The position numbers were made by a program, and so were the translations under genes. Below are positions 26,735-52,388 of a stretch of DNA of 64,000 nucleotides, piece by piece; the stretch's first letter is position 1; every line of letters begins with the position of its first letter. The stretch spans positions 601,875 through 665,874 of the forward strand of contig OZ246411.1 of assembly GCA_965231055.1 (NCBI GenBank), written 5' to 3'. Source of the stretch: an uncultured Candidatus Saccharibacteria bacterium. Lineage in GTDB: Bacteria; Patescibacteriota; CALEFQ01; G965231055. The notes below the pieces were generated by a model. That model saw only the letters and a list, made by a program, of their open reading frames with translations. It ran no database searches and was not told the origin of the DNA.

Positions 26735-26750
26735 TGATTAATTTTCAAAT

Positions 26751-27503
26751 ATGATTTTAAAAAATTATATAATTCCGATAGCTTTCTCTGCCATTTTGGT
26801 TTCTCTTTTTGAGTATCTAATATTCAATCCAAGATACTTATGGTGGATTATTTTTACTTGTTTTTGTGTCTTGGCTTTGCAGGTTATTATGATAGGTAAA
26901 ATTTTTGAGAAAGAAACCATAAAGCAAACTGCTCTATACTTGGTTTTGCCTGAGTTATTTATGCTTGGGATGCTACTTGCTTTCTCGTTTCTTTCGAGTG
27001 AACTTTTTCAGCACTTTTTTGTGGTGATGGCCTTTTTCCTTTTCTGGATGATGTTTTATTCCCTGGTCGAGAGGCACAAGTGGCACAAAGAAGTTTATCT
27101 ATTTCTTACCATTGTAACGTCTTTTGTTTTATTCTTCGCATTGCTTAGTTTCTTGGTGCTTACGGGGCCTAGAATGTTTTATTATATTGCATTTATGGCA
27201 TTGTGTTTGGTTTTATTCTTCCAGCTTTTTTGGTACTATAAAGTCATAGATAGAAAAAATTTGATACTGATATTTGTTGGCCCTCTTGTCCTTTTTGAGC
27301 TTTACTGGGCTGTGAGTTTTCTGCCACTAAGCTCAATGGTCGCTACTATTATTCTTTCTACTGCTTTTTATCTTTTTGCTGGACTTTCTCTTGATTTCGC
27401 CAGAAAGACCTTGGATAAAAAATCTACATTGGAATATATTTTGATTTCAGTTGGAGTGCTTTTGGCAACTCTACTTACCACTACTTGGCTTCCTATTTAT
27501 TAA
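26751..27503 (+). CDS. Polytopic membrane protein (about 7 TM)
   Basis: Hydrophobic throughout. Confidence 0.45.
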   Translation: MILKNYIIPIAFSAILVSLFEYLIFNPRYLWWIIFTCFCVLALQVIMIGKIFEKETIKQTALYLVLPELFMLGMLLAFSFLSSELFQHFFVVMAFFLFWMMFYSLVERHKWHKEVYLFLTIVTSFVLFFALLSFLVLTGPRMFYYIAFMALCLVLFFQLFWYYKVIDRKNLILIFVGPLVLFELYWAVSFLPLSSMVATIILSTAFYLFAGLSLDFARKTLDKKSTLEYILISVGVLLATLLTTTWLPIY

Positions 27504-27513
27504 AAATATTCAT

Positions 27514-28710: not shown

Positions 28711-28714
28711 AATA

Positions 28715-30031
28715 ATGATAAAAACAAACACAAAAATACTTCTGACACTTGCTGTAACTTGCATTGCATTTGCATTTCCAATGTTTTCCAAGGCAGTGGA
28801 TGTGAATTATATTTTATCTGATTATGATTTGGTCAAGCAATCAATGACACGCAGTGAAATTCAGAATTTTCTAAATGCTTACGATAGCTGTCTCGCTGAT
28901 TACTCTGCCAATGGACACTCGGCAGCTTGGATGATCTATAATTATTCCAAAATTCACAGTATCAATCCCCAAGTGGCCCTAGCGACTCTACAAAAAGAAC
29001 AAAGCTTGATCACAAGTACGAGCTGTAGTGCTAGCAGACTTGCATGGGCGATGGGATGGGGAGATAGGAGTAATTTTGCAAATCAAATAGAGATGGGTAT
29101 TAGACAATTTAGACGCTACCTGAGTTATCCTGAAAACTATACCTTTCAAGTGGGTAAGACCAGTACGGTTGACGGATCCGTGAAAGTGAAACCAGATAAC
29201 GCCGCAACTGCTGGACAATACAACTACACACCACATGTTCACGGAACTCAGCTATTTAAAACTATTTACAATGACTGGTTTGCAGCAAATCTTCCTGAAG
29301 GAATGATAGTAAAGAAAAAAGGTGCCGAGAGATACTATAGAATCCTTCCTGATGGTGAGAAACAGCCAATAAAGAATTATCAAGTAGCTTCCTCGTATGT
29401 TGATTCTAGAAATATAGTAGAGCTTACCTCTGTTCAACTTGCGAATTATGAGACCACTACAAATTATCTGCCTTTTCCTGATGGTGTCCCGATGCTTGCG
29501 AAATGGGGAACTTTTTATGTTACCCAAAACGGTATGAGACACGGGGTGCCAAGTCCGGAAATAAGAAGCATGATGGGGTATAGGACTGAAGATGCTTTGA
29601 AAGTTGATAATAGTGGTGTTATCGTACAACACCCAGAAGGCAATGCGTTTACCAGTAAAAAGCTTTATGTGAATGGTACCTTACTTCGAGCCGAGGGTGA
29701 ATCAGGTGTATGGTATATAAATGAAACTACGAAAAAAAGATACGCTTTTTGGTCGCCACAACTCAGGGATCATTATGGTATAAATCACACCGTAGTGGTA
29801 GTAAAAAGAAGCGTAATAGATAAATATAAATTCGTTGCTTCAAATCCGATGAAATACCGACCAGGAAATTTGGTAGGGCATGACGGACAAGTGTTTTTTA
29901 TTGATTACTATGGCAAGAGAAGGCCGATTACTAATAGGGAAACACTGGATAGCCTAGGGTTTGATATCAATGCCGTAAATTGGGAGAATGAAGATGTTTT
30001 GAAGCTCCATCCGCTAGGAGAAGCGATATAA
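28715..30031 (+). CDS. Secreted protein, possibly with an N-terminal glucosaminidase-like (GH73/FlgJ-like) peptidoglycan hydrolase domain
   Basis: Signal peptide. The segment QVALATLQKEQSLITS...LAWAMGWGD resembles the glucosaminidase motif. This is a weak call. Confidence 0.35.
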   Translation: MIKTNTKILLTLAVTCIAFAFPMFSKAVDVNYILSDYDLVKQSMTRSEIQNFLNAYDSCLADYSANGHSAAWMIYNYSKIHSINPQVALATLQKEQSLITSTSCSASRLAWAMGWGDRSNFANQIEMGIRQFRRYLSYPENYTFQVGKTSTVDGSVKVKPDNAATAGQYNYTPHVHGTQLFKTIYNDWFAANLPEGMIVKKKGAERYYRILPDGEKQPIKNYQVASSYVDSRNIVELTSVQLANYETTTNYLPFPDGVPMLAKWGTFYVTQNGMRHGVPSPEIRSMMGYRTEDALKVDNSGVIVQHPEGNAFTSKKLYVNGTLLRAEGESGVWYINETTKKRYAFWSPQLRDHYGINHTVVVVKRSVIDKYKFVASNPMKYRPGNLVGHDGQVFFIDYYGKRRPITNRETLDSLGFDINAVNWENEDVLKLHPLGEAI

Positions 30032-30117: not shown

Positions 30118-33105
30118 CTATTCTTCTATGATCTTTATTCCCTTTATATAAATCTGATCTTCTAAGGGACTATTTTGCTGTATCGTGAGGGTGTGTATTC
30201 CTGGATCAAGATTTGGAAGTGTGAATTCTACATCTTTTTGATTTTGGTCAATTTTTTCAAACGCAGAAAGTTCATTTAGATTAATTTGAATAGTAGATTC
30301 GTTTTGGCAATTCACCGAAAATAGTATTTTATATTTTTTGTTGGGATTTGTATTTGAGTAAATTAGTTTGATTTCTCCGACTCCTTCAATTGGAGCATAA
30401 GGATTATCTGACCCCGGAGATTCTAATCTGCCCCAGCCATCCGAGGTTATAGCCATAATACCACTATTTTGCTGGTTTAATTCAAGTATTTTATAGCTCT
30501 CATCGTCTCTTGTGATATTGCATCCGAGGTTTTTGCAGATATAATCTGAAAGAAGTTTGGTTTCCTCTGGGTAAGCTACATTTTTATCAAATACGAAATA
30601 TTTAATTCCAAGGCTTGTCAGGAGTGCCGTTTCGTTTGAATAGGCGAATTGCTTATTCAAGATGAAGTAGTCCCAATTAAGTCGCTTTTCCAGGCCTTCA
30701 TCTATAAAATACCAGTGTCTAATCATGGGATATCTCAGTGCCAGATCTTTTTTGTCATTGATAAATCCAGAAAGATCAAAAATAGAAGCATTTAGTTCTC
30801 TGAGAACTGCGTTTTCAGTGTTTGGCAGTAGTGCTTGTTTGTAGAATAATGCTTTATCATTTCGTTCTGAAAAAGTAAATTTATCACGATCAATAGATTT
30901 ATTGAAGAAGTACTTAATATCCTTTAGAACAATTGATCCATCACTTTGACCCTGTATTTCTGAATTTTTGGCAGCTAGGTCTAGTACTATTTCACTTTCT
31001 CCTTGATTAGTGAGAATTTGAGGAATTTGGACTACTATTTCTTTTTCTCCGATTTGATACTTTCCAATTTCTTGGTCGTTGTATTTGAGGGTAAATTCGC
31101 GGAAAAAATTAGTAGAATAAGGATCGTCTTTTTCTAGTCTAAATCTTAATTCAGCAGTTAGATATAAAGAAGCATTGGATGAATTTTTTATCACGATGCT
31201 TGCTTTTTCATCTGTGATTTTTTGTAAGTCTTCGTCTATTCTCTCAAATCCACCCCCTAGTCTTATATAGTTAGCGTTTTCATTGTTTGCGAATTCAGGT
31301 GTTTTATATACTGTAATATTCGGTTCTTCGTAGTAAATTTCACACCCAGTTTTTTCTAGGTAACGTTTTAATCTAGATAAATCTTTTGGTAGATTTCCAA
31401 AGTAGTCTTCGTGGACAATGATGTATCTAAGGTTCTGTTCGGCGAAAATAGCGGGGGCAATATTTGGTATATCGTGATTTACCATATCTTCAAGTCTTCC
31501 TTGTGGAATATCATAAAGTATATCTCCAAGTATCGGCATATTTTCAAGCCAAGTCCAATTGGTTTTACCCTCCCTCGCGAAGTCTCTATTGCTGATGGTT
31601 TTATGATCGTGAAAGGTGTTGTAGTAAAGAAATCTAGAGGCTGAGCTATATTTATAATTTCCTGGGATTTGGGCTATTGTAAAATCTTCATCGTCATTTG
31701 CCAAAACTTTAGAATAGAATTCGGGTACTTCCATTTTTGACATAGGAATTTGGAAGTAACCAAACTCCAAGCAAGCGACAAGTAAAACTGATACAAAGAT
31801 GGGATAATAAAATTTGGGTTTCAGTTTTTGTTTGGCAAGCGACAAGAGCAGTCCAGCGACCATTGAAAATCCCAAAATCCCCACGATAGCAAATCTCGAA
31901 ACTGTTCGGACTATATCCGCGTAAGGAATATACTGATATACGAGGAGATAGGGTAGTGGAATGAATCTAAGTTCTTGATCAATAAACTTGGCGACGGGGC
32001 CAAAAGAAAGCACGAGAAAAACGATCCCCATATAGATCCACACTCTTTGTTTGTTTTCGGTTATATGTTTTGAGAAAACAAAAAACAAAACAATGGATGC
32101 AATCATTACTATGCCCAAATAGCCCCTATAATCATCAAAAAGTTCCGGCAATGATTCAGACGCTTTTAGTGCAGTTGTAAGAGTTTTACCTAGTATTAGG
32201 CTGTATTCCGGAGCTAAAACAGGGGAAATAAGGTCGCTAGAGTATTTGATTACTTGGCTAATGCCTGGATCCAAATAGTTTTCTTCCGAGTTGGCTACCT
32301 TCAAAGAACCGACATGAAAGAGTGCGACTATTGATGCAGCTGATAGTGCTATAACAATAAACTGAGTCCACGTGCGTTTTGAAAAAAGTATTTTTTTGTT
32401 TGCGATATAATAAAGGAGAAAGAAACCGGCAATTACGAAAGCGAAATACGTAAGATGGTGTTCGGTCTTGGCAGTTACCGCAAAAACCATGATAAGCGGA
32501 ATCATTTTTTTCCACTCCATTTTTTCTAAATATCTCATCAGAAATAGAACAAAAAAAGCCAGTATTCCATAAAACATGGTGCCCCTGTGTCCGTTGTGCA
32601 GAAAATGAAAAGGAACCATTGCAAACAAAAAGGCTGTGAGGAATGCTGAAATGTGATTTTTGGTTATATAGTGCTGGAGTAAGTATCCACCAACAAAGGC
32701 GAGCAAGAAGCTTAGAAAAAACCAAATATTATACGAAAGTGCCTCGTTACCTGTCCATATCTCAAGTATCGCAAGTGAAGTTGTAGGTAAATCTTGATTC
32801 CATGCGAACTGCAAAAAGTTTTGTTCTCCGGTCAATATGGTTTTATATCTACCCAAAAATTGATAAACATCAGGATTCAAAAGTGGAAACTCACTCGTCA
32901 TTTTGCTGACAAGGGGAGTTGTAAGTAAAACAAAGAGTACTATAAAAATAGCGCATGAAATTAAAAAACCCATCCAAAATTTGATCGGTTTTTTCCCGGT
33001 TATTTTGTGAGAATCCATTTTTGTAGGACTAGTCTTTGGCTGTAACTCAGTTCGCTTGATTTGGTTTTTGAGAGAAATATCAAGTATTTTTGTGTGTGTT
33101 TTCAT
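30118..33105 (-). CDS. Large (995 aa) polytopic membrane protein with a ~550-aa C-terminal extracytoplasmic domain. Possibly a YfhO/GT-C-like glycan-modifying enzyme.
   Basis: More than 12 TM helices in the first 440 aa followed by a soluble domain. The family call rests on architecture only. Confidence 0.35.
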   Translation of the reverse strand: MKTHTKILDISLKNQIKRTELQPKTSPTKMDSHKITGKKPIKFWMGFLISCAIFIVLFVLLTTPLVSKMTSEFPLLNPDVYQFLGRYKTILTGEQNFLQFAWNQDLPTTSLAILEIWTGNEALSYNIWFFLSFLLAFVGGYLLQHYITKNHISAFLTAFLFAMVPFHFLHNGHRGTMFYGILAFFVLFLMRYLEKMEWKKMIPLIMVFAVTAKTEHHLTYFAFVIAGFFLLYYIANKKILFSKRTWTQFIVIALSAASIVALFHVGSLKVANSEENYLDPGISQVIKYSSDLISPVLAPEYSLILGKTLTTALKASESLPELFDDYRGYLGIVMIASIVLFFVFSKHITENKQRVWIYMGIVFLVLSFGPVAKFIDQELRFIPLPYLLVYQYIPYADIVRTVSRFAIVGILGFSMVAGLLLSLAKQKLKPKFYYPIFVSVLLVACLEFGYFQIPMSKMEVPEFYSKVLANDDEDFTIAQIPGNYKYSSASRFLYYNTFHDHKTISNRDFAREGKTNWTWLENMPILGDILYDIPQGRLEDMVNHDIPNIAPAIFAEQNLRYIIVHEDYFGNLPKDLSRLKRYLEKTGCEIYYEEPNITVYKTPEFANNENANYIRLGGGFERIDEDLQKITDEKASIVIKNSSNASLYLTAELRFRLEKDDPYSTNFFREFTLKYNDQEIGKYQIGEKEIVVQIPQILTNQGESEIVLDLAAKNSEIQGQSDGSIVLKDIKYFFNKSIDRDKFTFSERNDKALFYKQALLPNTENAVLRELNASIFDLSGFINDKKDLALRYPMIRHWYFIDEGLEKRLNWDYFILNKQFAYSNETALLTSLGIKYFVFDKNVAYPEETKLLSDYICKNLGCNITRDDESYKILELNQQNSGIMAITSDGWGRLESPGSDNPYAPIEGVGEIKLIYSNTNPNKKYKILFSVNCQNESTIQINLNELSAFEKIDQNQKDVEFTLPNLDPGIHTLTIQQNSPLEDQIYIKGIKIIEE

Positions 33106-33197
33106 TTTTGACAGATAGTGGTTTTTGAAGTAAAATCATAGCATAACTTTCCGCAATAATACCACAAAAACAAAGCGTTATCAAATAAACCAAGGCA

Positions 33198-34337
33198 TTG
33201 AAAATCCTTTTTTTAAATTATGAATTTCCACCTCTTGGAGGGGGAGCGGCGAACGCCACTTTGAATATTCTCAAGGAGCTAGGAAAAAGAGAGGATTTGG
33301 AAATTGATCTCGTTACTTCCTCAACTGACAAATATAAGGAAGAGCAGTTTACTCCAAATATAAAAATCTATTATTTAGACATAGGCAAAGCTGGAAATAT
33401 TCATTTTCAATCTCAGAAAGAACTTGTGAAGTACGCTTTCAAGGCTTTTAGATTTGCAAAAAAACTCAAAAAAACCAAAAACTACGATTTGGCACATGCT
33501 TTTTTTGGAGTTCCATGTGGTTTCGTTGCAATGCTTTTGAAAATCCCATATATTGCATCTCTACGAGGTACTGACGTACCTTTTTACAATGAAAGATTTA
33601 AAGTTTTGGATAAGCTGATTTTCAGGTGGCTTAATAAGAATTTTGTTTGGAAACGCGCTCAAACGGTAGTTACTAATTCAGAAGGATTAAAAAATCTAGC
33701 GCTCAGGTCTAGTCCTGGTCAGAAAATCGGTGTAATATATAACGGCGTAGACACGGGTAAATTCCATCCAGATGAAGCGATGAAAAACAAAGATTTTACC
33801 ATTCTATATAATTCTAGATTCATAGAACGCAAGGGAATCCGATATTTGATTGATGCTTTTATAAAATTCAACGGAAAGTATTCTGAATCTAGGCTTCTTA
33901 CTATTTCATCTGGAAATTTGGAAGAAGAAATGAAACAAAGGGTTAAAGAGGCGGGAATTAGTGATGCAGTGGAATTTCATGGAGCGTTAAGCCCCAAAAC
34001 CAATGAAATAGCTGAAATATACCGAAAATGTCATGTTTTTGTATTGCCTTCCTCAAATGAGGGCATGAGTAATTCACTTTTGGAGGCGCTAGCTACAGGT
34101 ATGCCCATTATCGCGACAGATACAGGCGGAACCCAGGAACTAGTGGGTAGTGATAACGGCATAATCATACCGATGCATAGCTCAAAGGCGATTTTTGAGG
34201 CGTTAGAACGACTTTATAAGGATCAAGGACGGATGAGTGATATGGGCAAAAAAAGCAGGGAAAGGGCCGAGAAAATGAGCTGGGCCACTACTGCTGAACA
34301 GTATTATCAAATTTATAAAAAGCATGAAAACTGTTAA
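33198..34337 (+). CDS. GT4-family glycosyltransferase (TTG start)
   Basis: MKILFLNYEFPPLGGGA N-terminus. The segment EGMSNSLLEALATGMPIIATDTGG contains the EX7E motif. Confidence 0.8.
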   Translation: MKILFLNYEFPPLGGGAANATLNILKELGKREDLEIDLVTSSTDKYKEEQFTPNIKIYYLDIGKAGNIHFQSQKELVKYAFKAFRFAKKLKKTKNYDLAHAFFGVPCGFVAMLLKIPYIASLRGTDVPFYNERFKVLDKLIFRWLNKNFVWKRAQTVVTNSEGLKNLALRSSPGQKIGVIYNGVDTGKFHPDEAMKNKDFTILYNSRFIERKGIRYLIDAFIKFNGKYSESRLLTISSGNLEEEMKQRVKEAGISDAVEFHGALSPKTNEIAEIYRKCHVFVLPSSNEGMSNSLLEALATGMPIIATDTGGTQELVGSDNGIIIPMHSSKAIFEALERLYKDQGRMSDMGKKSRERAEKMSWATTAEQYYQIYKKHENC

Positions 34338-35628
34338 TGAACTCATACTAAGAGTGCTTGCCAAGATTCAGAGCAGAAAGGTTTTTGAAAATCTCGATCT
34401 TATCGAGAATGTTTTTGAATCTGGCAAAGATAATATGAAAAAGTTTCAGGACGATGCCTTGAGAGAATTACTTATTCACGCATATAAAAGTGTCCCGTAT
34501 TATTCAAAAGTATTAAAAGAGTGTGGAGTGATCTCGGGGGATCTGAGCGTGAATTTGTCTAAATTTGAAAAAATTCCAGTATTAACCAAGGAGGTTATTC
34601 GTCGAGAAGGTAAAAACTTACAATCCAAAGATATTGAAAAAAGAGGTGCCTATAAAAATACTTCTGGTGGATCTACTGGTGAGCCAGTAGAGTTTTGGCA
34701 GGACAAAAATTATGATGATTGGAATAATGCAACCAAGCTATTTTATTTCAATAGGCTTTTGGGAAAAAAGATAGGGGAAAGAGAGATTAAGCTTTGGGGT
34801 TCCGATAGAGATATTATTCAGGGTAATTTAGCTTTTAAGGATAGAGTGTTAAACAAACTTTACAATCGCAAATTTTTTAATTGCTACAATTTTGGTGAAA
34901 AAGATATTAAGGAACTAATAAAACTGAATAACACATTTAAACCGGCGGCATACTGGTCTTACATGGAAGCTGCTGATGAGTTTTCGAAATATTTAATAAA
35001 AAATAACATCCAAACTCATCACCCAAGATTCATTGTTTCATCCATAGGGCCATTATATGAAAAAACGAGACAGAATATCGAACAAGCTCTTGGATGTAAA
35101 GTTTATGATCAATATGGATCTAGGGAAGTAGGTATTATTGCTGGTGAAAATCCAAAATCAGATGGAATGATGTATTTTTCGTGGTACAACAAAGTTGAAG
35201 TATCCCCTTATCCAGAGGGCAACGCTATAATTACAAATCTTAGAAATTACTCTATGCCACTAATAAGATACGATCTAGGTGATGTGGTTTTGGCAAAAGA
35301 TGAGTCGAGTCTAAAAAAAGTTATGGGAAGGACATTGGGGTACTTTAAAAAGGCTGACGGTTCTCTTGTTAGCACGCATTTTACCGTTCAGGCTCTGTTT
35401 TTTAAGGATTGGATAAAACAGTTTCAGTTGATTCAAGAAAAACTCAACGAAGTAATATTAAAAATAGAAATAAAAGAGGGGTTTGGTAAAAATGATGACG
35501 ATATGAAGGAAATTAGCGATAAAAATAAAATACTTTTTGGAAATGAGTGTGAGACAAAATTTGTTTTTGTAGATAAAATTCTTCCTTCAAAAAGCGGGAA
35601 GTACATATACACAGTATGCAAAATTTGA
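34324..35628 (+). CDS. CapK/PaaK-like adenylate-forming enzyme (phenylacetate-CoA ligase / F390 synthetase family)
   Basis: Adenylation motif YKNTSGGSTGEP. The later segment YDQYGSREVG fits the family. Confidence 0.7.
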   Translation: MKTVNELILRVLAKIQSRKVFENLDLIENVFESGKDNMKKFQDDALRELLIHAYKSVPYYSKVLKECGVISGDLSVNLSKFEKIPVLTKEVIRREGKNLQSKDIEKRGAYKNTSGGSTGEPVEFWQDKNYDDWNNATKLFYFNRLLGKKIGEREIKLWGSDRDIIQGNLAFKDRVLNKLYNRKFFNCYNFGEKDIKELIKLNNTFKPAAYWSYMEAADEFSKYLIKNNIQTHHPRFIVSSIGPLYEKTRQNIEQALGCKVYDQYGSREVGIIAGENPKSDGMMYFSWYNKVEVSPYPEGNAIITNLRNYSMPLIRYDLGDVVLAKDESSLKKVMGRTLGYFKKADGSLVSTHFTVQALFFKDWIKQFQLIQEKLNEVILKIEIKEGFGKNDDDMKEISDKNKILFGNECETKFVFVDKILPSKSGKYIYTVCKI

Positions 35629-36743
35629 AAAATATCAAAAAAAAACATATTTGTTTTATTTGTCCAAAGGCATATCCACTTTTTAATTCTAAAATTTCTT
35701 CAACTTTCGGCGGAGCAGAGGTCCAGATGAGTATGCTTGCGCGTGAACTAGCTAGGGATTCTAGTTATAAGGTCTCTATTCTGGTCGGTGATTATGGACA
35801 AAATAAACATGAAACTATCGATAATGTAATGTTGATAAAATCATTTTATTTTAAAAAAAATATATTAGCCTTTATTGCACGTGCTTTTTCTGAAATGCTT
35901 AAGGTCGGGGCCGATTGCTATATACAACGCTCAATGACAAATTATACATTCTTGCTGGCGTTGATTTGTAAGATATATAGACGTGGTTTTGTTTACATGG
36001 TAGCTCATAACAACGAAGTTGATGGTGGTAAAACAGTGAGGCGTAGTAAAATATCAACGATTTTGTCGTGGCTGGTTTTTAAAACGTCCTCGGCTGTTAT
36101 TACTCAGAATCATTATCAGCACGACAAGGTTAGTCGTGTAACGAAACGTGCATATGCTATTAAGTCAGGATACAGAATAAAAGACAATGTATTAAATCAT
36201 GATCGCAAGCATTTTTTGTGGGTTGGTAGGAGTGAAAAATGGAAACGACCAGAGGTTTTTATTACTCTTGCGAGAAAGTTTAATAAAAATAAATTTGTTA
36301 TGATATGTCCTCGTGCAACCAGAGCATCACATATCTCCGATGATGTTAAGAAACTAGCAAGCAACGTGCCCAATGTTGAGTTTCTAGATTTTGTACCTTT
36401 TGACAAAATCGGAAAATATTTCGAAGATGCGATCGCATACATAAACACCTCTACGCAAGAGGGGTTCCCAAATACGTTTATTCAGTCCATGATCGCTGGT
36501 ACTCCCATAGTTAGTTTAGCTGTAAATCCGGACAATTTTTTTGCTAAAAGCGGAGCGGGTATTTTTTGTTCTAACGAGATTTCAAAAATGATTCAAGGCG
36601 TTAAACAAGTCAGTGAATCTAAGATAATCTTTAGTAATTTCAGCGGTAATGCTAGTAAATACGCAAAAGAAAATCATGATATGTCTAAGATAATAGAGCA
36701 ATTTAAAAAAGTAATTTTAAAACATGCGATACCTTCTTCTTAA
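35616..36743 (+). CDS. GT4-like glycosyltransferase
   Basis: The segment EGFPNTFIQSMIAGTPIVS resembles the GT-B C-terminal domain. The N-terminal half resembles the acceptor domain. Confidence 0.6.
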   Translation: MQNLKNIKKKHICFICPKAYPLFNSKISSTFGGAEVQMSMLARELARDSSYKVSILVGDYGQNKHETIDNVMLIKSFYFKKNILAFIARAFSEMLKVGADCYIQRSMTNYTFLLALICKIYRRGFVYMVAHNNEVDGGKTVRRSKISTILSWLVFKTSSAVITQNHYQHDKVSRVTKRAYAIKSGYRIKDNVLNHDRKHFLWVGRSEKWKRPEVFITLARKFNKNKFVMICPRATRASHISDDVKKLASNVPNVEFLDFVPFDKIGKYFEDAIAYINTSTQEGFPNTFIQSMIAGTPIVSLAVNPDNFFAKSGAGIFCSNEISKMIQGVKQVSESKIIFSNFSGNASKYAKENHDMSKIIEQFKKVILKHAIPSS

Positions 36744-38106
36744 GCTCAGCTTGATGCTTTCAAAAAAGAACATTTTTAGAGAGTATTTGCTATTGAAAAA
36801 AATAGAACGCAATACCATAGCGGAAAACAAAAAAATTCAACAGGGCAAACTTGTTGCCTTATTGGAACATGCTTATAAATATGTTCCTTATTATCGAGAG
36901 GTTTTACCTAAGTCCGGAGTTATTGAAAAGACTAGCGATGGATCAGTGCAAGTTAATCTTGATAAATTTTCAAATATTCCAATTTTAACAAAAGCTATTA
37001 TACGAAAAAGATGGAATGATCTTTTATCCGAAGATCCAGGATTTAAAGCTCGCATGCCCTATAAAAATACATCTGGGGGATCAACCGGGGAACCAGCTGA
37101 ATTCATGAGAGATAAAACCACGTGGACTGAGGGGATGGCTGGCAAGTGGCTGTTTTTTACTTTCGGTGTAGAAAAATTTCCATGTAGGCTTTTGAAACTT
37201 TGGGGTGCGGAGCGAGATGTTTTGCTTGGGGGCATTGGTTTCTCTGCAAAATTTAAAAACTGGCTTTATAATAGAAAGATTCTTAATACTTTTAAAATGT
37301 CTGAGTCCGACATGGAAAAATATACTGAGACTATTAATAAGTATAAACCAAAAATCATAGAAGCTTACGCACAATCAATTTATGAATTTTCACTATATAT
37401 CATTAAGCATCAGTATCATTTAAGTAAACCCACAGCTATTTTTACTTCAGTGGGGACGCTCACTGATCAGATGCGAAATGTTATTGAAAAAGCATTTGGA
37501 TGTAGGGTTTATAATCGATATGGTTCCAGAGAAGTGGGCGACATGGCATGTAGCTGCAAAACTAGCACTGAATTACATGCAAATATTATTCACTATTTCA
37601 TAGAGGTTCTGGATGAGAATAAGTTAAAAGTGAAGCCAGGTAATACTGGTGATATCTATGTAACTTCATTGAATAATTATTCAATGCCATTAATAAGATA
37701 TGAAATAGGGGATATGGCAATGATTGCCAAGCAAGAATCGTGTAGTTGCGGGTCGGGTTTTCCACTGCTAGGCAGTGTGATTGGAAGAGTGGGGTCGATG
37801 ATCACAACAAAAAACGGTACACTTGATGGTATTGCTGTTAGTACTTTGTTGTATTATTATAAAGATCATGTGCCCTTTAGTTCATTTATGCGCTATCAAT
37901 TAATTCAAGAAAGAAAAGATCTAGTTATACTTAAGATCGCAGTTGATAATCAGAAAAAATGGTTATACGAAAAGCCACGCGTAATAGAAAAATTTTCAAA
38001 GGCACTTGGAGATGGCGTGCGATTTGAAATAGAAGAGGTAGAAAAAATAGAGCCGCTCAAAAATGGAAAATTTATCTATATTATAAATAAAACATTAAAA
38101 AAATAA
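36724..38106 (+). CDS. Second CapK/PaaK-like adenylate-forming enzyme (paralogue of 34324-35628)
   Basis: YKNTSGGSTGEPAEF, YNRYGSREVG, YSMPLIRYEIGD. All three are shared with the upstream paralogue. Confidence 0.7.
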   Translation: MRYLLLKLSLMLSKKNIFREYLLLKKIERNTIAENKKIQQGKLVALLEHAYKYVPYYREVLPKSGVIEKTSDGSVQVNLDKFSNIPILTKAIIRKRWNDLLSEDPGFKARMPYKNTSGGSTGEPAEFMRDKTTWTEGMAGKWLFFTFGVEKFPCRLLKLWGAERDVLLGGIGFSAKFKNWLYNRKILNTFKMSESDMEKYTETINKYKPKIIEAYAQSIYEFSLYIIKHQYHLSKPTAIFTSVGTLTDQMRNVIEKAFGCRVYNRYGSREVGDMACSCKTSTELHANIIHYFIEVLDENKLKVKPGNTGDIYVTSLNNYSMPLIRYEIGDMAMIAKQESCSCGSGFPLLGSVIGRVGSMITTKNGTLDGIAVSTLLYYYKDHVPFSSFMRYQLIQERKDLVILKIAVDNQKKWLYEKPRVIEKFSKALGDGVRFEIEEVEKIEPLKNGKFIYIINKTLKK

Positions 38107-38107
38107 A

Positions 38108-38773
38108 ATGGAAAATACAGATTTACAACGCAATATAGAAAAAATGGGCAAGGAGAGATTTGAAAAAATCGGTCACGAATATTATGGTGACAAATGCGCT
38201 AGGGTTTTGGCATCAATTACTAAGCATTTTATTAAAAACGACATACTTGATTGCGGCGCCGGTACTGGTGCATTGATGTTGGAACTTAAACGACGGGGTT
38301 ATACAAATATTAATGGCATAGATCTTTATCCAAAAGTAGATTTTGTGCAGCAAGGTGATATTACTAATTTAAAATTCGCAAACGCTAGTTTGAACACGGT
38401 GTTTTTTATGGAGGTCATGGAGCATCTTACTGATGAACAGATATTAAAAACGCTTAGTGAGTCATCAAGGGTACTTAGAAAGGGAGGCCACCTAATTATT
38501 ACTACGCCTTTTAGTGAGCAGCTACTAGAGAATACAATAAAATGCCCGTTTTGCGAGCAGTCATTTCATCGTTATGGACATCTTAGAACTTTTGACAAAA
38601 AAGTAGCGATTGCTACTTTTGAAAAATATGGCTTTAAAACTAAATTTTTTGGAGTTTATGCTCTTGGCGCAATGTCAAAGCTACCTATGGGAAGATACCT
38701 TAATTGGTTTTTTAAGAAATTAAAGTACAAATCTATTTCACAAAGCCTAGTTTTGGTTTTAAGTAAGACCTAA
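38108..38773 (+). CDS. Class I SAM-dependent methyltransferase with a C-terminal CxxC...H Zn-ribbon-like element
   Basis: Motif I ILDCGAGTG, acidic motif II GIDLYP. C-terminal CPFCEQSFHRYGH. Confidence 0.7.
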   Translation: MENTDLQRNIEKMGKERFEKIGHEYYGDKCARVLASITKHFIKNDILDCGAGTGALMLELKRRGYTNINGIDLYPKVDFVQQGDITNLKFANASLNTVFFMEVMEHLTDEQILKTLSESSRVLRKGGHLIITTPFSEQLLENTIKCPFCEQSFHRYGHLRTFDKKVAIATFEKYGFKTKFFGVYALGAMSKLPMGRYLNWFFKKLKYKSISQSLVLVLSKT

Positions 38774-39995
38774 AATACCAAAGATAACAGAAAAACCCTA
38801 CCCAATATGCTATTGATGTAGCTATGGCTGGTCCTATAACCCCCAGCCTTTTTATTAAAATCAAATCAAGAATTAGATTTATTATTACGACTATTGTATT
38901 AATTACCTGAGGTGCTTTTTTTCGTCTCAGTGAATTAATAATCGGTATGTAAAAAATAAAAAGGAAATGGGCAATCAATCCAATCATCAATATCTGTAAT
39001 ACTGGGATAGATGAATCATATTTATGGTTATAAAAAATCTGAATTAGCTTTGGAATAATATAGGTGGCTATGATTATCAATGTAATACCTAATGCCCATA
39101 ATCTCATTCTGGTGTGATTTAGGTATCGTTTAATCTTTTCATTGTTATTTATATCCCGAGATATAACTGGCAAAAAGAAATTATTTACTATTAATGAAAC
39201 ACCAATGAATCCCTTGAAAATCTGATAAGCTATGTTGTATATACCGACATCCTCAAGCGAGGTGTAGAATTTTAGAATTATACTATCTCCCCAGTTTATT
39301 AAATATATTGATATCAGGCCCAAAACATTCCATAAAGACCAGTTTAAAGTATCTCTAAATAATGTTTTATCGAATACAAGCGGAAATAGCTTTTTCATAT
39401 CTATGAAAAAGATAAAGAGTACAGATCCAGCCAATGTTGAGATTAGATAGCTGGCGAAAACCTTATCTAGATCAATCGATCCCGCATTGACAAAAAACAA
39501 AAATACCAAAATATTTAATACACCCACGACAAGGGAATAGGATGCCCCCGTTTTCTTTTTGTTAAGTCCGGAAAAAAGATTTTCAAAAAATCTTTTTAAA
39601 AGGATAGCTATGTAAAACAAAAGAATAAACAGGACTAGATTTGTGGACACGCCAGTTATCTTGGAAACAAAATTTTTGAAAAATAGCATTATAACTATGC
39701 CAGCAATAAAAGAAAGACAAAAAAACAAAAGCTGTACTGTAAAACTTCGATTTATTTTTTTTGATTCGTTTTCTTCCCGCGCGGCATTTACTATGAAGGG
39801 TGTCTGAGATGATGTCATTAAAACAGTAATTATGATTAAGGAAATCATTTGACTCAAAGAAAATGCTCCATAATCAGACACGGATATAAATTTTACAATA
39901 ATTAGTGGGAAAATATAATACAAACCCTCGCCCAAAATTCTTAGTGAAGAAAAAATTATAAGATTTTTAGATTTTTTAAATATTCTTAGTATCAC
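38733..39995 (-). CDS. MOP-superfamily flippase (Wzx-like), about 12 TM
   Basis: 420 aa, evenly spaced TM helices and short loops. Sits in the glycan locus. Confidence 0.5.
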   Translation of the reverse strand: MILRIFKKSKNLIIFSSLRILGEGLYYIFPLIIVKFISVSDYGAFSLSQMISLIIITVLMTSSQTPFIVNAAREENESKKINRSFTVQLLFFCLSFIAGIVIMLFFKNFVSKITGVSTNLVLFILLFYIAILLKRFFENLFSGLNKKKTGASYSLVVGVLNILVFLFFVNAGSIDLDKVFASYLISTLAGSVLFIFFIDMKKLFPLVFDKTLFRDTLNWSLWNVLGLISIYLINWGDSIILKFYTSLEDVGIYNIAYQIFKGFIGVSLIVNNFFLPVISRDINNNEKIKRYLNHTRMRLWALGITLIIIATYIIPKLIQIFYNHKYDSSIPVLQILMIGLIAHFLFIFYIPIINSLRRKKAPQVINTIVVIINLILDLILIKRLGVIGPAIATSIAYWVGFFCYLWYFRSYLKPKLGFVK

Positions 39996-40074
39996 ATTTT
40001 TCGTTAAAAATTGAATGATTGTTAATGATTTTATGAAACAGGATTAATCTCAATAGTAAACAATCATTCGTGGG

Positions 40075-42594
40075 TTAAAATTGTTTATCAGTTTCATCTA
40101 ATTTTATTGCTCTTACGCAATTATACCCTTTATTTAAGCAAAATTCTATATCAGGATTTTTGTCGTAATATAAAAGCAATGCTTTAATATATTCTGTTGT
40201 TTGATCATCAATAGAGTCTTTTTTTAAGTAATTATTGTATATCTTCTTACCTCCAGGGGTCAAAACTATATAATTAGTTTGACTTTCTTTGGATAGAGGA
40301 TTTATATTATTCCTCCATTGGGTGTTTCCGACAAAAAACTGAGAAAATCCTTCGCGGTCAACCCATGCATTTAACAACGTTGCGTCCGGTAACTTATTTA
40401 ATTCCTTTGCGATTTCATATCCTCCATAACCCCATGCTTCAGTTATGGTTGTTGGTTTGTAATTTAGCTCATTGCTGTATTGGATATAAAAAGGAGATGC
40501 AGATATAGTTGTGTATGCCATAAAAACCATAATAGATATAATAAACGTTAGTCTGTATTTTCTCAACGCTAAAAATGCCATAGCAGCACAAAAAGTATAA
40601 AAAGGTATTACTAAAACTTGATATCGCGCTGTTGCAAGAAAACCTTTTAAGGATGATCCACCTAAGAATATTAGGATAGTTATAATTGCAGTAACTAGGG
40701 ATATTTTAAGAATTTTATTGTCTATATACATCTTCTTTCGGCATTGGAATAGGAAAATCATCAATCCAATCAGAATGGGCAATGGTAAAAAAAGAATTGT
40801 CATAGTGCCACCAGCTAAGAGCATGTTGTAGGCATTACCAGCGCGAGCAACAAAATTAGCAAACACATTTTCAAAGTCAAAAAGACGATAATTAAGAAAA
40901 ATATTAGCTATTAAAAAAATTATTCCAGAAAAAAATATCGTGACAGTAACTTTCTTAAACCAGTTGCTCGCGATGTAGGATCTGAAAACAATCTTTCTAA
41001 AAGCCTCACTGTTCAAAAAAAGAATATCAAAAAACAAGACAAAAAAAGCTATCAAAATCAATCCGCGGGCGGGCGCAATTAATGGCGCACCCACGGTGCC
41101 GTTAATAACCAATTTAAATTTACCCCACGTCGCAGGAAATAATAACGCATACACCGCCATTGAAATAAGCGATATCTTGCCAAAATCCCAAAGACGGCGA
41201 AATGTTTTTTGTGTATCGAGTCTACACATGAAGTATTCCAAAGTTATAGCTAGGAAAAACGTTATATACAGAACCGATGCAAAAAATTTGGATGTTAAGG
41301 CTAAACCTAAAAATATACCGCTAAAATAAAGAAATGATGTTTTATTAGTTTTAAGATAGGCGAAGAAAGCAAAAAAAGAAACTATGGCAGTACTCCATAG
41401 CGTAGAATCAGGATTTATGATTTGAGAAATCCCAATAATTATAGGGTTCAGGGCTAGTAATGCAATAAACACAAGAGATGCCTTGATTCCCAAGAACTTT
41501 TTGCTCATAAAAAATAGTAAAAATAGCATCGCCGTATTAAATATAAGTATCGGTAGCCTTGCAAAAAACAAATAGCTCTCGAAATTAGATGCATTAAAAT
41601 TTTCTTTATCCAAGAAAAAATTAGTTATCCCAGAAAGAAGAGAAGGTAAAATTCCTGGTTTATCATTTATATAAGTTTTTTCCCACTCACCGTTGCTTAG
41701 AGAGTCATAAAGCTGTGGCACCCTAGTGTAAACCCACTTTGGTTCATCTACGCTCATGAATTTCCCCAAATGAATTGTGCCTAAAACAAAAAAGCTTACA
41801 CATATAAGCACTAATACGATCAAAATTAGACCTTTTCCATATTTTTTATTTACGTATTTTTGTTCAAGCTTTTCAGTAGTTTGGATAGGTGAAGATTTCT
41901 CTTTGAAAATAAATATCGTAACTCCACAAACAAAAAAAGTAACAAAATATAGTGGAGCAGTGGCTGTGCTTATTTTTTCAATATAATCACTGCTGATTCC
42001 AGGTAAATAATTAATAATTTCTAAAGCACAAAGCAATAAAATAAGAAAAATAGAATATAGCGATATGTTTTTCTTAAAACTAACGGTAAAACCACCGCCA
42101 CGACCAATATAGGTCACGATAAAAATATTGATTACAACAGCATAGAGTACAACAAAAGTTGAGTCTGAATTGAGTCCCAAGGTGTATTCTGACGCAGTCA
42201 TGAGTAGTAGGCTTAGGGCACTCGCAATGATGGTAAACCCAAATACTTTTGTAGCATTGGCCATACATTTATCTAAAAACGCCTTTATTGCCAGGATTGT
42301 TATTATAGAGACAAAAATTAGTATAGCTCTCTCTAGTGGACTTACGGATAGATTGCATAGCGGTGTATAATCGCAAACTAGGCTAAAAAAGATAATCACC
42401 GTGGTAATAACCAGTATCGTTTTAAGAAGGAGATCTAGATGTGCTCTTTTTTGTATATAGACAAGAGCTAATGTAAAAACAAACCCCAACAAAAATAGCC
42501 ACTGAATAATATTAAATTGACCAATAAAAACAGAATGCACCAAGTCAAAGGCCACTATAAACATGATGATACTGAAAAGAGTTTTATTTTGCAT
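40075..42594 (-). CDS. GT-C membrane glycosyltransferase (PMT_2/ArnT-like) fused to an extra N-terminal ~270-aa multi-TM domain
   Basis: The acidic loop motif MSVDEPKW lies after the ninth or so TM helix, and NDKPG follows it. 839 aa. Confidence 0.45.
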   Translation of the reverse strand: MQNKTLFSIIMFIVAFDLVHSVFIGQFNIIQWLFLLGFVFTLALVYIQKRAHLDLLLKTILVITTVIIFFSLVCDYTPLCNLSVSPLERAILIFVSIITILAIKAFLDKCMANATKVFGFTIIASALSLLLMTASEYTLGLNSDSTFVVLYAVVINIFIVTYIGRGGGFTVSFKKNISLYSIFLILLLCALEIINYLPGISSDYIEKISTATAPLYFVTFFVCGVTIFIFKEKSSPIQTTEKLEQKYVNKKYGKGLILIVLVLICVSFFVLGTIHLGKFMSVDEPKWVYTRVPQLYDSLSNGEWEKTYINDKPGILPSLLSGITNFFLDKENFNASNFESYLFFARLPILIFNTAMLFLLFFMSKKFLGIKASLVFIALLALNPIIIGISQIINPDSTLWSTAIVSFFAFFAYLKTNKTSFLYFSGIFLGLALTSKFFASVLYITFFLAITLEYFMCRLDTQKTFRRLWDFGKISLISMAVYALLFPATWGKFKLVINGTVGAPLIAPARGLILIAFFVLFFDILFLNSEAFRKIVFRSYIASNWFKKVTVTIFFSGIIFLIANIFLNYRLFDFENVFANFVARAGNAYNMLLAGGTMTILFLPLPILIGLMIFLFQCRKKMYIDNKILKISLVTAIITILIFLGGSSLKGFLATARYQVLVIPFYTFCAAMAFLALRKYRLTFIISIMVFMAYTTISASPFYIQYSNELNYKPTTITEAWGYGGYEIAKELNKLPDATLLNAWVDREGFSQFFVGNTQWRNNINPLSKESQTNYIVLTPGGKKIYNNYLKKDSIDDQTTEYIKALLLYYDKNPDIEFCLNKGYNCVRAIKLDETDKQF

Positions 42595-43522: not shown

Positions 43523-44824
43523 ATGGCGCTGACATTACTTCAGAAGATAAAAAACAAGAAAGCTAGAATAGGAATCATTGGAATGGGATATGTGGGACTA
43601 CCTCTCGCCATAGCTTTTGCAAACAAAGGTTTTAAAGTGACCGGTTTTGAAAAACATACTGAAAAAATAAACAAACTCAAAAAAGGAGAGTCTTATATTG
43701 ATGATATCAAAAATGAAACACTAGAGCCCCTAACTAAAAAAGGTAAGATCATACCCACCAAAGATTTTAAACTGATCGCAAATCAGGACGCTATGCTTAT
43801 CTGCGTACCAACCCCCCTTGATAAACATAAAGTTCCTGACATTACATATATTGTTGATGCGTGTAAGTCAATTTCCAAATACTTGAAGAAAAATACCCTA
43901 GTTATTTTGGAAAGCACCACGTATCCAGGTACTACCGAAGAAGTGGTTATACCAGAAATAGAAAAAAACGGAAAAATTGCAGGCAAAGATTTTTTTGTAG
44001 CATTTTCTCCGGAAAGAGTTGATCCCGGAAACAAAAAATTTAATACCGAGAATACTCCTAAGATTGTAGGGGGCATAAACCCACAATCATCAAGGCTCGC
44101 ACAAACGCTGTATCATAGCTTCCTGAAAGATGTGAAATGTGTTTCATCTCCAAGGGTTGCTGAAATGGAAAAAATACTTGAAAACACATTTAGACTTATA
44201 AATATCTCTATGATCAATGAGTTGGCAATTTTGGCGAATAGGATGAATATAGATATTTTTGAGGTTATAGGGGCGGCGAGCACCAAACCATACGGTTTTA
44301 TGCCGTTTTATCCAGGCCCTGGAATAGGCGGACACTGTATCCCACTTGATCCATTTTATCTCTCATGGAAGGCCAAGGAATATAATTTTAATATGCAATT
44401 TATAGAAACTGCGGGCCAAATAAACGATTTTATGCCCGAATTCACGGTACTTCATGCTTCGGAAATACTTAATACTGCCAAAAAAAGCATAAAAGATGCT
44501 AAAATACTTATACTCGGAGTGGCTTATAAGAGAGATATTAGCGACCCAAGGGAATCACCAGTAATTGATGTAATCAATAAACTAGAAAAAATTGGTGCAG
44601 AAATATCTGTAAGTGATAGTTATATTTCCAAATTTAGTGTGCACGGCAAAGAATATATTTCAAAAGAACTAGATAAAAAACTTATAAAAGAGCAAGATCT
44701 AGTTATAATAGGAACAGATCATTCCAATGTTGACTACGATTTGGTTACTAAAAATGCAAAACTAATTTTAGACACTAGAAACGCCATAAAAACAAAATCA
44801 AAAAACTTATTTAAGCTTTTTTAA
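43523..44824 (+). CDS. UDP-sugar 6-dehydrogenase (UDP-N-acetyl-hexosamine / UDP-glucose dehydrogenase family)
   Basis: Rossmann motif GIIGMGYVGLPLA. ESTTYPGTTEE segment. Catalytic Cys in GPGIGGHCIPLDP. Confidence 0.85.
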   Translation: MALTLLQKIKNKKARIGIIGMGYVGLPLAIAFANKGFKVTGFEKHTEKINKLKKGESYIDDIKNETLEPLTKKGKIIPTKDFKLIANQDAMLICVPTPLDKHKVPDITYIVDACKSISKYLKKNTLVILESTTYPGTTEEVVIPEIEKNGKIAGKDFFVAFSPERVDPGNKKFNTENTPKIVGGINPQSSRLAQTLYHSFLKDVKCVSSPRVAEMEKILENTFRLINISMINELAILANRMNIDIFEVIGAASTKPYGFMPFYPGPGIGGHCIPLDPFYLSWKAKEYNFNMQFIETAGQINDFMPEFTVLHASEILNTAKKSIKDAKILILGVAYKRDISDPRESPVIDVINKLEKIGAEISVSDSYISKFSVHGKEYISKELDKKLIKEQDLVIIGTDHSNVDYDLVTKNAKLILDTRNAIKTKSKNLFKLF

Positions 44825-51434: not shown

Positions 51435-52388
51435 ATGAAAACTTATTTATTGACAGGGGGAGCGGGCTTTATCGGATCAAATCTAGCAAAAAAACTATTA
51501 ACCCAAAAAAACGCAGTTCATGTTTTGGACAACATGAATGATTATTATGATCCAAAGCTTAAAAAAGCAAATCTTGAAGAGTTAAGTAAATTTAAAAGTT
51601 TCAGATTCACCAAGCTAGATATTAGAGATGCTAAGGCACTCACCAAAGCTACAAAAGGAAAAAAATATGACGCCATAATCCATTTGGCCGCGAGGGCAGG
51701 AGTCCGACCATCTATCGTAGATCCTTTGCTTTATTCGACTACGAATGTTGATGGCACGGTGAATATGCTAGAGATCGCAAAGACACTTGGAGCTAAGAAA
51801 TTCATCTTCGCTTCGTCTTCGTCAATTTACGGAAACAACAAAAAAGTACCATTTTCAGAAAAAGATAATGTGGATTTTGCTATTTCTCCATACGCTGCCA
51901 CCAAGAAAGCGGGAGAAGTGATATGTCATGTTTATCATAGTTTGTATCAAATCAATATCACTTGCCTGAGGTTTTTTACAGTTTATGGTAGGGCAGGAAG
52001 ACCCGATCTCGCGATTGCCAAATTTACAAAGCTCATAGATGAAGGAAAACCGATTGAAGTTTTTGGAAAAGGAGACATGAGAAGAGATTTTACATATATT
52101 GATGACATAGTTCAGGGTATTATTAAGTCCATAAATCAATGCAAGGGTTACAATATTTATAATCTAGGAGAATCACAAACCACCTCAGTTATTGAATTAA
52201 TTGATCATATCTCAAAAGCTTTGGGTAAAAAATCCAAAATAAATCACAAGCCATTACAACCAGGTGATGTCAAAATTACTTACGCAGATATTTCCAAGGC
52301 AAAACGAGAAATTGGATACAATCCCAAAACCAAGATCAAAGATGGAATTAAAAAATATGTTGATTGGTATTTGTCCAATAAAAAATAA
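51435..52388 (+). CDS. NAD-dependent nucleotide-sugar epimerase (extended SDR; a UDP-glucuronate/UDP-glucose 4-epimerase-like enzyme)
   Basis: Rossmann motif GGAGFIGSN. YAATK catalytic motif. Confidence 0.8.
   Translation: MKTYLLTGGAGFIGSNLAKKLLTQKNAVHVLDNMNDYYDPKLKKANLEELSKFKSFRFTKLDIRDAKALTKATKGKKYDAIIHLAARAGVRPSIVDPLLYSTTNVDGTVNMLEIAKTLGAKKFIFASSSSIYGNNKKVPFSEKDNVDFAISPYAATKKAGEVICHVYHSLYQINITCLRFFTVYGRAGRPDLAIAKFTKLIDEGKPIEVFGKGDMRRDFTYIDDIVQGIIKSINQCKGYNIYNLGESQTTSVIELIDHISKALGKKSKINHKPLQPGDVKITYADISKAKREIGYNPKTKIKDGIKKYVDWYLSNKK

Follow-up and report, generated by a model that had tools for sequence, protein, structure and literature searches.

The CapK family of adenylate-forming ligases, which we take to owe its name to CapK from the type 1 capsule locus of Staphylococcus aureus, is annotated in public records either as 'capsule biosynthesis protein CapK' or as 'phenylacetate--CoA ligase family protein' (CoA, coenzyme A). 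Among described enzymes its closest relatives are PaaK1 and PaaK2 of Burkholderia cenocepacia (2y27, 2y4n and 2y4o) and BT_0428 (4r1l), which stand in a context of aromatic catabolism, and the PaaK-family ligases ClxA (9s3l and 9s45), NatL2 (6siw and 6tm4), AjiA1 (6wuq) and BagE/FevW, which act on aminohydroxybenzoic acids in natural-product pathways and serve as a model for direct capture of an acyl-adenylate. ClxA, NatL2 and AjiA1 join the acyl-adenylate directly to an oxygen or nitrogen nucleophile and use no CoA. In Campylobacter jejuni, Cj1438, a glycosyltransferase (GT) fused to an ATP-grasp amidoligase, amidates capsule glucuronate. Amide substituents on uronic acids have been described in the S. 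aureus type 1 capsule (CP1), where taurine is amide-linked to N-acetylgalactosaminuronic acid (GalNAcA) (PMC12043029), and in the N-glycans of Methanococcus (M. voltae and M. maripaludis), in which a 2-acetamido-hexuronic acid, N-acetylmannosaminuronic acid (ManNAcA), is amidated with an amino acid, threonine (PMC11407970, PMC2952790); the enzyme attaching the threonine was unidentified as of a 2010 review (PMC2952790). Here we analysed a stretch of 64,000 nucleotides (nt), referred to as the window, from an uncultured Candidatus Saccharibacteria bacterium (contig OZ246411.1, positions 601,875 to 665,874). Positions 33198 to 38773 of the window are a single, translationally coupled operon in a Wzx-dependent surface-glycan locus of this Patescibacteria (candidate phyla radiation, CPR) bacterium, and the operon places side by side two distinct, separately conserved units, each consisting of a GT gene followed by a CapK gene.

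The two window proteins, CapK1 and CapK2, share with the CapK family at large the setting in a Wzx-type glycan locus, the Pfam domain PF27533 and 41 invariant alignment columns, and they differ from it in that the window has two copies, each paired with a GT and one of them lacking the Cys/His cluster described below. With PaaK1, PaaK2 and BT_0428 they have in common the two-domain fold as predicted from a model of CapK2 (template modelling (TM) scores of 0.64-0.68), the P-loop and the YG.xE, R-Y..D and GR motifs, but identity amounts to 17-20% and the context is glycan assembly as opposed to aromatic catabolism. The ClxA-type ligases, ~18-23% identical to the window proteins, likewise have no glycan context. 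The amide of CP1 represents the chemistry that we propose here, although S. aureus CapK is likened to the window proteins by family name and not by sequence, and the Methanococcus N-glycans provide an archaeal precedent: their ManNAcA parallels a dehydrogenase of the UDP-ManNAc/UDP-GlcNAc type encoded in the window, and the GT-CapK module is shared with archaea. Cj1438 resembles the fusions of GT4 and CapK found in other genomes in that a GT is coupled to the ATP-dependent amidation of a uronate carboxylate, as proposed for CapK, but it differs in its ATP-grasp fold and its acyl-phosphate chemistry, and no ATP-grasp or asparagine-synthase Pfam match was found in the window operon.

Five open reading frames (ORFs) on the same strand fill the operon in the order GT4-CapK1-GT-CapK2-methyltransferase, practically without intergenic room. 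They lie exactly at the positions given in the initial annotation, which had also named the encoded proteins correctly as GT4, CapK-family adenylate-forming enzymes of the PaaK/F390 type and a class I S-adenosylmethionine (SAM)-dependent methyltransferase with a Cys/His knuckle. The features of the operon and its borders are the following.

33108..33136, + strand: TTGACA-17-TAAAAT, a candidate promoter by consensus match only
33198..34337, + strand: GT4-family (GT-B fold) glycosyltransferase, 379 amino acids (aa), first operon gene
34324..35628, + strand: CapK1, CapK-family adenylate-forming ligase, 434 aa
35616..36743, + strand: divergent GT-B fold glycosyltransferase ('GT-B type'), 375 aa
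36724..38106, + strand: CapK2, canonical CapK-family adenylate-forming ligase, 460 aa
38108..38773, + strand: class I SAM-dependent methyltransferase, 221 aa, last operon gene
38733..39995, - strand: Wzx-type flippase, convergent with the operon (Pfam Polysacc_synt, 74 bits)

Successive junctions overlap by 14, 13 and 20 nt, in agreement with the 13-20 nt overlaps and the translational coupling claimed before, and a 1-nt spacer precedes the methyltransferase gene, which the convergent Wzx gene in turn overlaps by 41 nt. The promoter-like site sits in a 92-nt divergent intergenic gap 5' of the operon, agrees with the consensus at 11 of 12 positions and ties for best with one other site in 32900-40200, while a terminator scan at the operon end gave no convincing candidate. 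The GC content of the operon (~35%) is the same as that of its flanks. Gene callers place the start of CapK2 differently, yielding proteins of 437, 450 or 460 aa; we regard 36724 as the correct start, because the N-terminus that it yields, MRYLLLKLSLMLSKKNIF, agrees with those of homologues, for example MRNLLLKLSLQLSKKNIF.

Both CapK proteins contain YKNTSGGSTGEP together with all motifs of the adenylation core, so that the PaaK/F390-synthetase adenylation motif noted earlier in both is indeed present. The phosphate-binding loop TSGGSTGEP begins at residue 113 of CapK1 and residue 116 of CapK2, and both proteins keep YGSRE, PLIRY(D/E)(L/I)GD and V(M/I)GR as well as SGKY or NGKF at the C-terminal catalytic lysine; CapK1 reads TSGGSTGEP, LWGSDRD, YGSRE, PLIRYDLGD, GR and SGKY. 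The core motif positions of both align with 4r1l and 9s3l, and the 41 columns that are invariant across 24 sequences (the two CapKs and 22 homologues) include SGGSTG, the W, G and D of LWGSERD, YG.RE, R-Y..GD, GR and GK.Y. Precomputed Pfam annotation places PF27533 (CapK_C) on CapK1, CapK2 and nearly all listed homologues; our local Pfam scan, which ran without the PF27533 model, returned no match for either protein. The best solved relative by sequence is ClxA (9s3l; 5e-22 for CapK2 and 6e-11 for CapK1), whose structure holds 3-amino-4-hydroxybenzoic acid and its adenylate, and 4r1l (3e-15 and 3e-10, respectively), NatL2 and AjiA1 match as well. For the AlphaFold model of CapK2 (predicted local distance difference test (pLDDT) 88.4, predicted TM score (pTM) 0.86) the top Foldseek match was PaaK1 (2y27; E = 2.9e-27, TM 0.64/0.67), and by this model CapK2 is predicted to have the two-domain PaaK fold. 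The top NCBIfam match of CapK2, 'DVU_1553 family CoA ligase', was rejected at 122 bits against a cut-off of 300.

CapK1 and CapK2 differ in a Cys/His cluster (C268, H275, C330 and C332 in the numbering of the 450-aa protein) that is kept in 84 of the 94 CapK proteins compared, CapK2 included, where the 460-aa numbering gives C276, C278, H285, C340 and C342. Eight sequences have none of the four residues, among them CapK1 and its orthologues in two Saccharibacteria loci (L010 5549-6892 and L032 5553-6869; L numbers denote loci), and in these three proteins the cluster is missing jointly with the CxCG loop. The fact that the four residues vanish together suggests that the cluster is one structural unit, perhaps a metal site. 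A few unrelated CapK members are also without both cluster and loop (L024, L047, L078, L063 and L053).

The locus had been described as a duplicated cassette of GT and CapK. This description holds for the CapK genes, which are old paralogues with 36-38% protein identity and whose likeness at the DNA level is limited to stretches of 27-46 nt, ~80% identical, over conserved motifs. It does not hold for the two GTs, which are ~19% identical across 167 residues of their C-terminal parts (E = 2e-5), fall in different orthologous groups and thus are not copies of each other. Identical nucleotide sequences, which would have marked the tandem as an artefact, were not found, and because the paralogues are so divergent and their DNA matches so short, we exclude an assembly artefact or a very recent duplication without functional meaning, an explanation that we regard as next to impossible. 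The same proteins moreover recur in Logan assemblies and on an independent contig at NCBI (843,892 bp), on which the sequences of DnaX, CapK1, the second GT and the methyltransferase are identical. L010 keeps the order of the four genes, as does L032 apart from one inserted gene.

Each of the two GTs belongs to a type of its own. The GT encoded at 33198 scores above cut-off with Pfam Glycos_transf_1 (115.2 bits) and Glyco_transf_4 (60.9 bits), has E288-x7-E296 and shows all features of GT4 membership, and its orthologues, 46-53% identical, are found in the Patescibacteria/Saccharibacteria loci L045, L032 and L010. Pfam recognises only the C-terminal domain of the GT encoded at 35616 (Glyco_trans_1_4, 46.7 bits, and Glycos_transf_1, 43.8 bits, both above cut-off), with the N-terminal domain reaching 17.9 bits against a cut-off of 28.5, and the protein carries E282-x7-Q in place of E-x7-E. 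It represents a distinct conserved subfamily, of which 23 members share the motifs GG.E, LWVGR, TS..EGF and VNP. Archaeal and bacterial GTs whose genes directly precede CapK are mostly 38-47% identical to it, with 29% for the second GT in L004.

To place the two units among their relatives, a one-genome-per-species scan was run with the CapK alignment. It found relatives in 427 genomes, from which 80 loci were fetched and annotated by means of profiles that derive from the window plus two loci of archaea; in what follows, locus counts refer to 82 loci and the neighbour-joining tree covers 94 CapK proteins. The 35616-type GT and CapK2 recur as an adjoining pair in L002, L006, L007, L010, L032 and the first pair of L004, with identities of 42-47% for the GT and 45-49% for CapK, and with lower values for L045 and the second L004 pair; the pair in L011 was placed by profile score and tree position only. 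These loci come from metagenome-assembled genomes (MAGs): one Pacearchaeota MAG, two Methanosarcinales MAGs, two MAGs labelled Gammaproteobacteria, two Saccharibacteria MAGs and one Patescibacteria MAG. The pair is usually accompanied by a 33198-type GT4 and a 38733-type Wzx, and the module-adjacent flippases of L004, L007, L010 and L045 show 31-41% identity to the window Wzx. CapK1, for its part, groups in the tree with the first CapK of L010 and of L032 (49-53% identity), both of which sit just 5' of a GT-B gene, in L010 with a GT4 directly 5' as well. L010 reads GT4-CapK-GT-CapK and L032 has the same genes with one inserted after the GT4, every protein being 42-53% identical to its window counterpart. 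A 33198-type GT4 (profile score of at least 258 bits) lies directly 5' of CapK in 14 loci, L010 included, and the Methanosarcinaceae locus L004 (GT4-GT-CapK-GT-CapK) shows the same alternation as the window. Across the tree, CapK clades track the type of the partner GT. Since each pair has its own orthologues, we conclude that the window holds two distinct, separately conserved GT-CapK units.

The module GT4-GT-CapK-Wzx is conserved at 40-50% identity across CPR bacteria, DPANN archaea and methanogens (L002 and L008 from Pacearchaeota, L004 and L011 from Methanosarcinales, L006 and L007 from 'Gammaproteobacteria', and L010, L032 and L045 from Patescibacteria). Such identity across domains implies inter-domain transfer; the 'Gammaproteobacteria' labels of L006 and L007 may be binning errors.

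The pairing of GT and CapK had been called an uncommon arrangement, a view that the comparison overturned: besides the relatives in 427 species-level genomes, a GT-B fold GT lies directly 5' of CapK in 33 of 94 cases and directly 3' in 19 of 94, 47 of the 94 adjoin one on at least one side, at least two CapK genes occur in 9 of 82 loci, and fusion proteins exist. On these grounds the arrangement is recurrent and not rare. A profile search of 1.84 billion representatives returned 9,716 CapK clusters (50% identity) at E<=1e-30 and 21,670 at E<=1e-10. Among the best 150 representatives, CapK is fused to a GT4 (P0256 and P0289; P numbers denote proteins), Wzx (P0329), LPG_synthase_TM, an MprF-type membrane domain (P0324), a carbohydrate esterase family 4 (CE4) deacetylase resembling PgaB, IcaB and HfsH (P0263), DUF362 (P0279) or a second CapK (P0252, P0264, P0297, P0347 and P0373); P0252 consists of a Cys-less and a canonical half and thereby mirrors the combination of CapK1 and CapK2. 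The fusions with Wzx, LPG_synthase_TM, CE4, GT4 and CapK suggest that glycan intermediates at the membrane are what CapK acts on. When all ORFs of the 82 loci were clustered without bias, GT4 was found in 73 loci, the short-chain dehydrogenase/reductase (SDR) epimerase cluster that holds the window's enzyme in 31 (24 of them at 250 bits or more), two GT2 clusters in 26 and 20, the largest of several Wzx clusters in 23, the 35616-type GT in 20, a nucleotide-sugar 6-dehydrogenase in 16, DUF362 in 16 and an AsnB-type amidotransferase in 11. Genes for Wzy, priming transferases and tyrosine-kinase/CpsB proteins are also recurrent in CapK loci.

Most likely, CapK uses ATP to tailor a lipid-linked sugar at the membrane, and the glycan-tailoring role put forward in the initial annotation is plausible. 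For the reaction itself we tentatively propose, with a little less than an even chance of being right, that GT-dedicated CapKs adenylate the carboxylate of a hexuronic acid and that an amine captures the adenylate to form an amide without CoA. Under this proposal, each CapK would be a PaaK-fold ligase dedicated to the GT encoded just 5' of it and would, at the cytoplasmic face of the membrane, use ATP to adenylate a carboxylate on the lipid-linked sugar of its partner GT, the likeliest target being C-6 of an (N-acetyl)hexuronic acid supplied by the dehydrogenase and the 4-epimerase of the locus. An amino acid or a similar small amine would then capture the acyl-adenylate, the methyltransferase would add a methyl group and the convergent Wzx would flip the finished lipid-linked unit; two ligase-GT units would therefore predict a repeat unit with two tailored residues. 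Within the broader role, our leading guess is that a hexuronic acid is amidated at its carboxylate, and the acid, the nucleophile, the CoA independence and the order of steps are what we infer from the comparison. The genes that could supply the acid are two.

43523..44824, + strand: nucleotide-sugar 6-dehydrogenase of the UDP-ManNAc/UDP-GlcNAc type (TIGR03026, 421 bits, above cut-off)
51435..52388, + strand: SDR epimerase of the UDP-hexuronate 4-epimerase type (best Protein Data Bank match 5u4q, 297 bits)

Both had been listed before as genes of the locus. The dehydrogenase scores higher with models of UDP-ManNAc dehydrogenases (297 and 240 bits) and of TviB (224 bits) than with those of UDP-glucose dehydrogenases (155 and 135 bits), and it could supply a 2-acetamido-hexuronic acid. 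The epimerase matches 6zl6/6zla, presumably the Bacillus cereus UDP-glucuronate 4-epimerase, with 194 bits as against ~115 bits for Escherichia coli GalE, and could provide a uronic acid of galacto configuration. The earlier suggestion that these genes provide uronic acids to the module receives some support, as epimerase orthologues (45-50% identity) adjoin the module in four of five bacterial loci compared (L006, L007, L010 and L045). A dehydrogenase is near the module in three of the five (L007, L010 and L045), there only 25-28% identical to that of the window, and at least one marker out of epimerase, dehydrogenase and AsnB occurs in 35 of the 52 loci with full flanks, a count made with no control set. 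The neighbour genes thus fit uronic-acid-containing glycans; the link between dehydrogenase and CapK operon is one that we infer, because 43523 heads a separate operon with its own Wzx.

In favour of the carboxylate-amidation proposal speak the conserved and sometimes fused pairing of GT and CapK, and the fusions of CapK with Wzx and with LPG_synthase_TM. It also draws on the tight operon, the PaaK fold of the CapK2 model, the intact adenylation core, the CoA-free ligation known from relatives such as ClxA and NatL2, the uronic-acid genes near the module, the taurine and threonine amides of CP1 and the Methanococcus N-glycans, and the lack of any aminotransferase or carrier-protein family among those that recur in CapK loci (the 28 families described below). 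Several observations weigh against it. The association with uronic acids was counted without a control set and such genes are common in glycan loci generally, the dehydrogenase and the epimerase belong to other operons, at distances of 5 and 13 kb, that have Wzx flippases of their own, and the archaeal loci L002, L004 and L011 show neither gene in the flank read (up to 8 kb). An amine-donor pathway is not encoded in the operon, the fusion of CapK with a CE4 N-deacetylase (P0263) points to a sugar amine as nucleophile, and DUF362, a frequent 3' and fusion partner, is left unexplained. Full-text literature searches found no biochemical study of any CapK-family member.

The observation on P0263 leads to the alternative that CapKs adenylate a free small carboxylic or amino acid and transfer it to a sugar amine or hydroxyl of the lipid-linked glycan, an N- or O-acylation comparable to the route of GT4, deacetylase and ligase in mycothiol and bacillithiol synthesis. 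We consider this unlikely, yet a serious competitor: the nearest solved relatives ClxA, NatL2 and AjiA1 presumably activate a free acid, and the second-best NCBIfam match of the window GT4 is BshA, at 101 bits and below its cut-off. However, the CE4 fusion is just one of the 150 listed proteins, tblastn detected no homologue of CE4, PGA_cap, DUF362 or AsnB, nor of LPG_synthase_TM, in the window, and no deacetylase, aminotransferase or carrier-protein family is seen among the 28 families (27 of them annotated) that occur in 5 or more of the 82 loci. The PaaK fold and the adenylation core, as well as the public annotation as phenylacetate--CoA ligase family protein, would suit ordinary CoA ligases that feed acyl-CoA to a separate, glycan-decorating acyltransferase. 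We judge this improbable, since no acyltransferase is found in the operon or among the annotated co-occurring families, the fusions with GT4, Wzx and membrane domains suggest action on the glycan itself, and the PaaK equivalog model TIGR02155 (cut-off 646.3 bits) gave 39.6 bits for CapK1 and 58.8 for CapK2. In addition, the segment nssGYGMFTGGLGF of 4r1l, which we take to line the aryl-binding pocket of PaaK, aligns with and is replaced by the invariant polar LWGSERD motif of the CapK family, a hint of a polar substrate to which we give little weight.

Weak similarity to F390 synthetase (TIGR03335; 26.2 bits for CapK1 and 45.2 for CapK2) would allow for transfer of adenosine or guanosine monophosphate (AMP or GMP) onto a hydroxyl of the glycan or another molecule, with no carboxylate involved. 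This we hold to be very improbable: both scores fail the equivalog cut-off of 458.7 bits, roughly ten-fold below it, the A10 lysine and the core as a whole are equally consistent with acyl-adenylate chemistry, and the context predicts no nucleotide-bearing glycan.

The locus is a further example of a widespread and already named module, the chemistry of whose family appears uncharacterised, and what makes it of interest is the general hypothesis arising from the comparison more than the window as such. A gap becomes visible, namely a family of at least 9,716 clusters in bacterial and archaeal surface-glycan loci for which no experimentally defined reaction was found, and the one-to-one pairing of GT and CapK together with the fusions to GT4, Wzx and lipid-flippase-type domains leads to the testable hypothesis of ATP-driven tailoring of lipid-linked sugars. 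It is possible, although we lean towards doubt, that the CapK family forms a large overlooked class of membrane-associated, GT-matched and CoA-free glycan ligases joining amines (or acids) to lipid-linked sugars, that GT-CapK-Wzx is mobile between episymbiotic CPR bacteria, DPANN archaea and methanogens, and that the window carries two such units, one without the Cys/His cluster, for a doubly tailored repeat. The tailoring hypothesis, if true, would explain the origin of amide-substituted uronic acids in many capsules, O-antigens and archaeal N-glycans, and give insight into the poorly known cell surfaces of CPR bacteria, here with ~34 kb of glycan genes in a genome of at least 0.84 Mb.

The methyltransferase that closes the operon scores above cut-off with Pfam Methyltransf_23, _11 and _25 and has the SAM motif DCGAGTG from residue 48. 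The C-terminal CPFC...H element reported for it is present as C146-P-F-C149-x3-F-H154-x3-H158, located between strands of the methyltransferase core; its spacing (CxxC-x4-H-x3-H) corresponds to a short knuckle of putative metal ligands and not to a classical ribbon, and the loop has a pLDDT below 50 in the AlphaFold model. C146, P147, C149, F153, H154 and H158 are invariant in the seven detectable orthologues, three of which appear to share contigs with CapK2 orthologues, and the knuckle also occurs in methyltransferases that adjoin CapK or lie just 3' of it in L006, L007, L064, L070, L076 and L084, while a second methyltransferase subfamily in related loci is without it. The motif was not seen in any solved relative. 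A fold search returned generic class I methyltransferases only, and no substrate was assigned from it, since sugar O-methyltransferases such as RebM and AtmM ranked no higher than numerous other matches; 'DVU_1556 family methyltransferase' (NCBIfam) was likewise rejected at 38 bits against a cut-off of 155.

In other genomes the most frequent non-GT partner of CapK is DUF362, a protein of ~340-520 aa without a solved relative, which is encoded directly 3' of CapK in at least 11 loci (L015, L016, L018, L021, L026, L029, L041, L045, L048, L061 and L085). A CapA-like PGA_cap protein follows CapK in L004 (6668-7690), L087 (8010-9011), L013 and L050 and sits just 5' of it in L060, and one locus reads GT-CapK-PGA_cap-methyltransferase-Wzx.

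Nearly unbroken glycan genes extend over ~34 kb of the window (30118-64000) and include, besides several GT2 and GT4 genes, the following.

38733-39995 (- strand), 44828-46306 (+ strand) and 52439-53896 (- strand): three Wzx flippases
60059-61597: Wzy-like gene
30118-33105 (DUF6311) and 40075-42594, 57194-58441 and 58300-60054 (PMT_2): four large GT-C-like membrane proteins

The 995-aa DUF6311 and 839-aa PMT_2 proteins flanking the operon are not conserved in the related loci, bar one weak match. The window also encodes SerRS, DnaB, CysRS, DnaX, tRNA-Gln and a DUF5656 protein, and those homologues of its DnaX that carry a name are all from Patescibacteria/CPR. On the 5' side of the glycan island, 24360-30031 encodes a 437-aa protein of no family, a beta-helix protein, the DUF5656 protein, an HtrA-like trypsin/PDZ protease and a 438-aa protein of no family. 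Further upstream, amid housekeeping genes, 16459-18948 encodes an 829-aa protein with domains of type IV secretion coupling proteins (TrwB/TraG-like).

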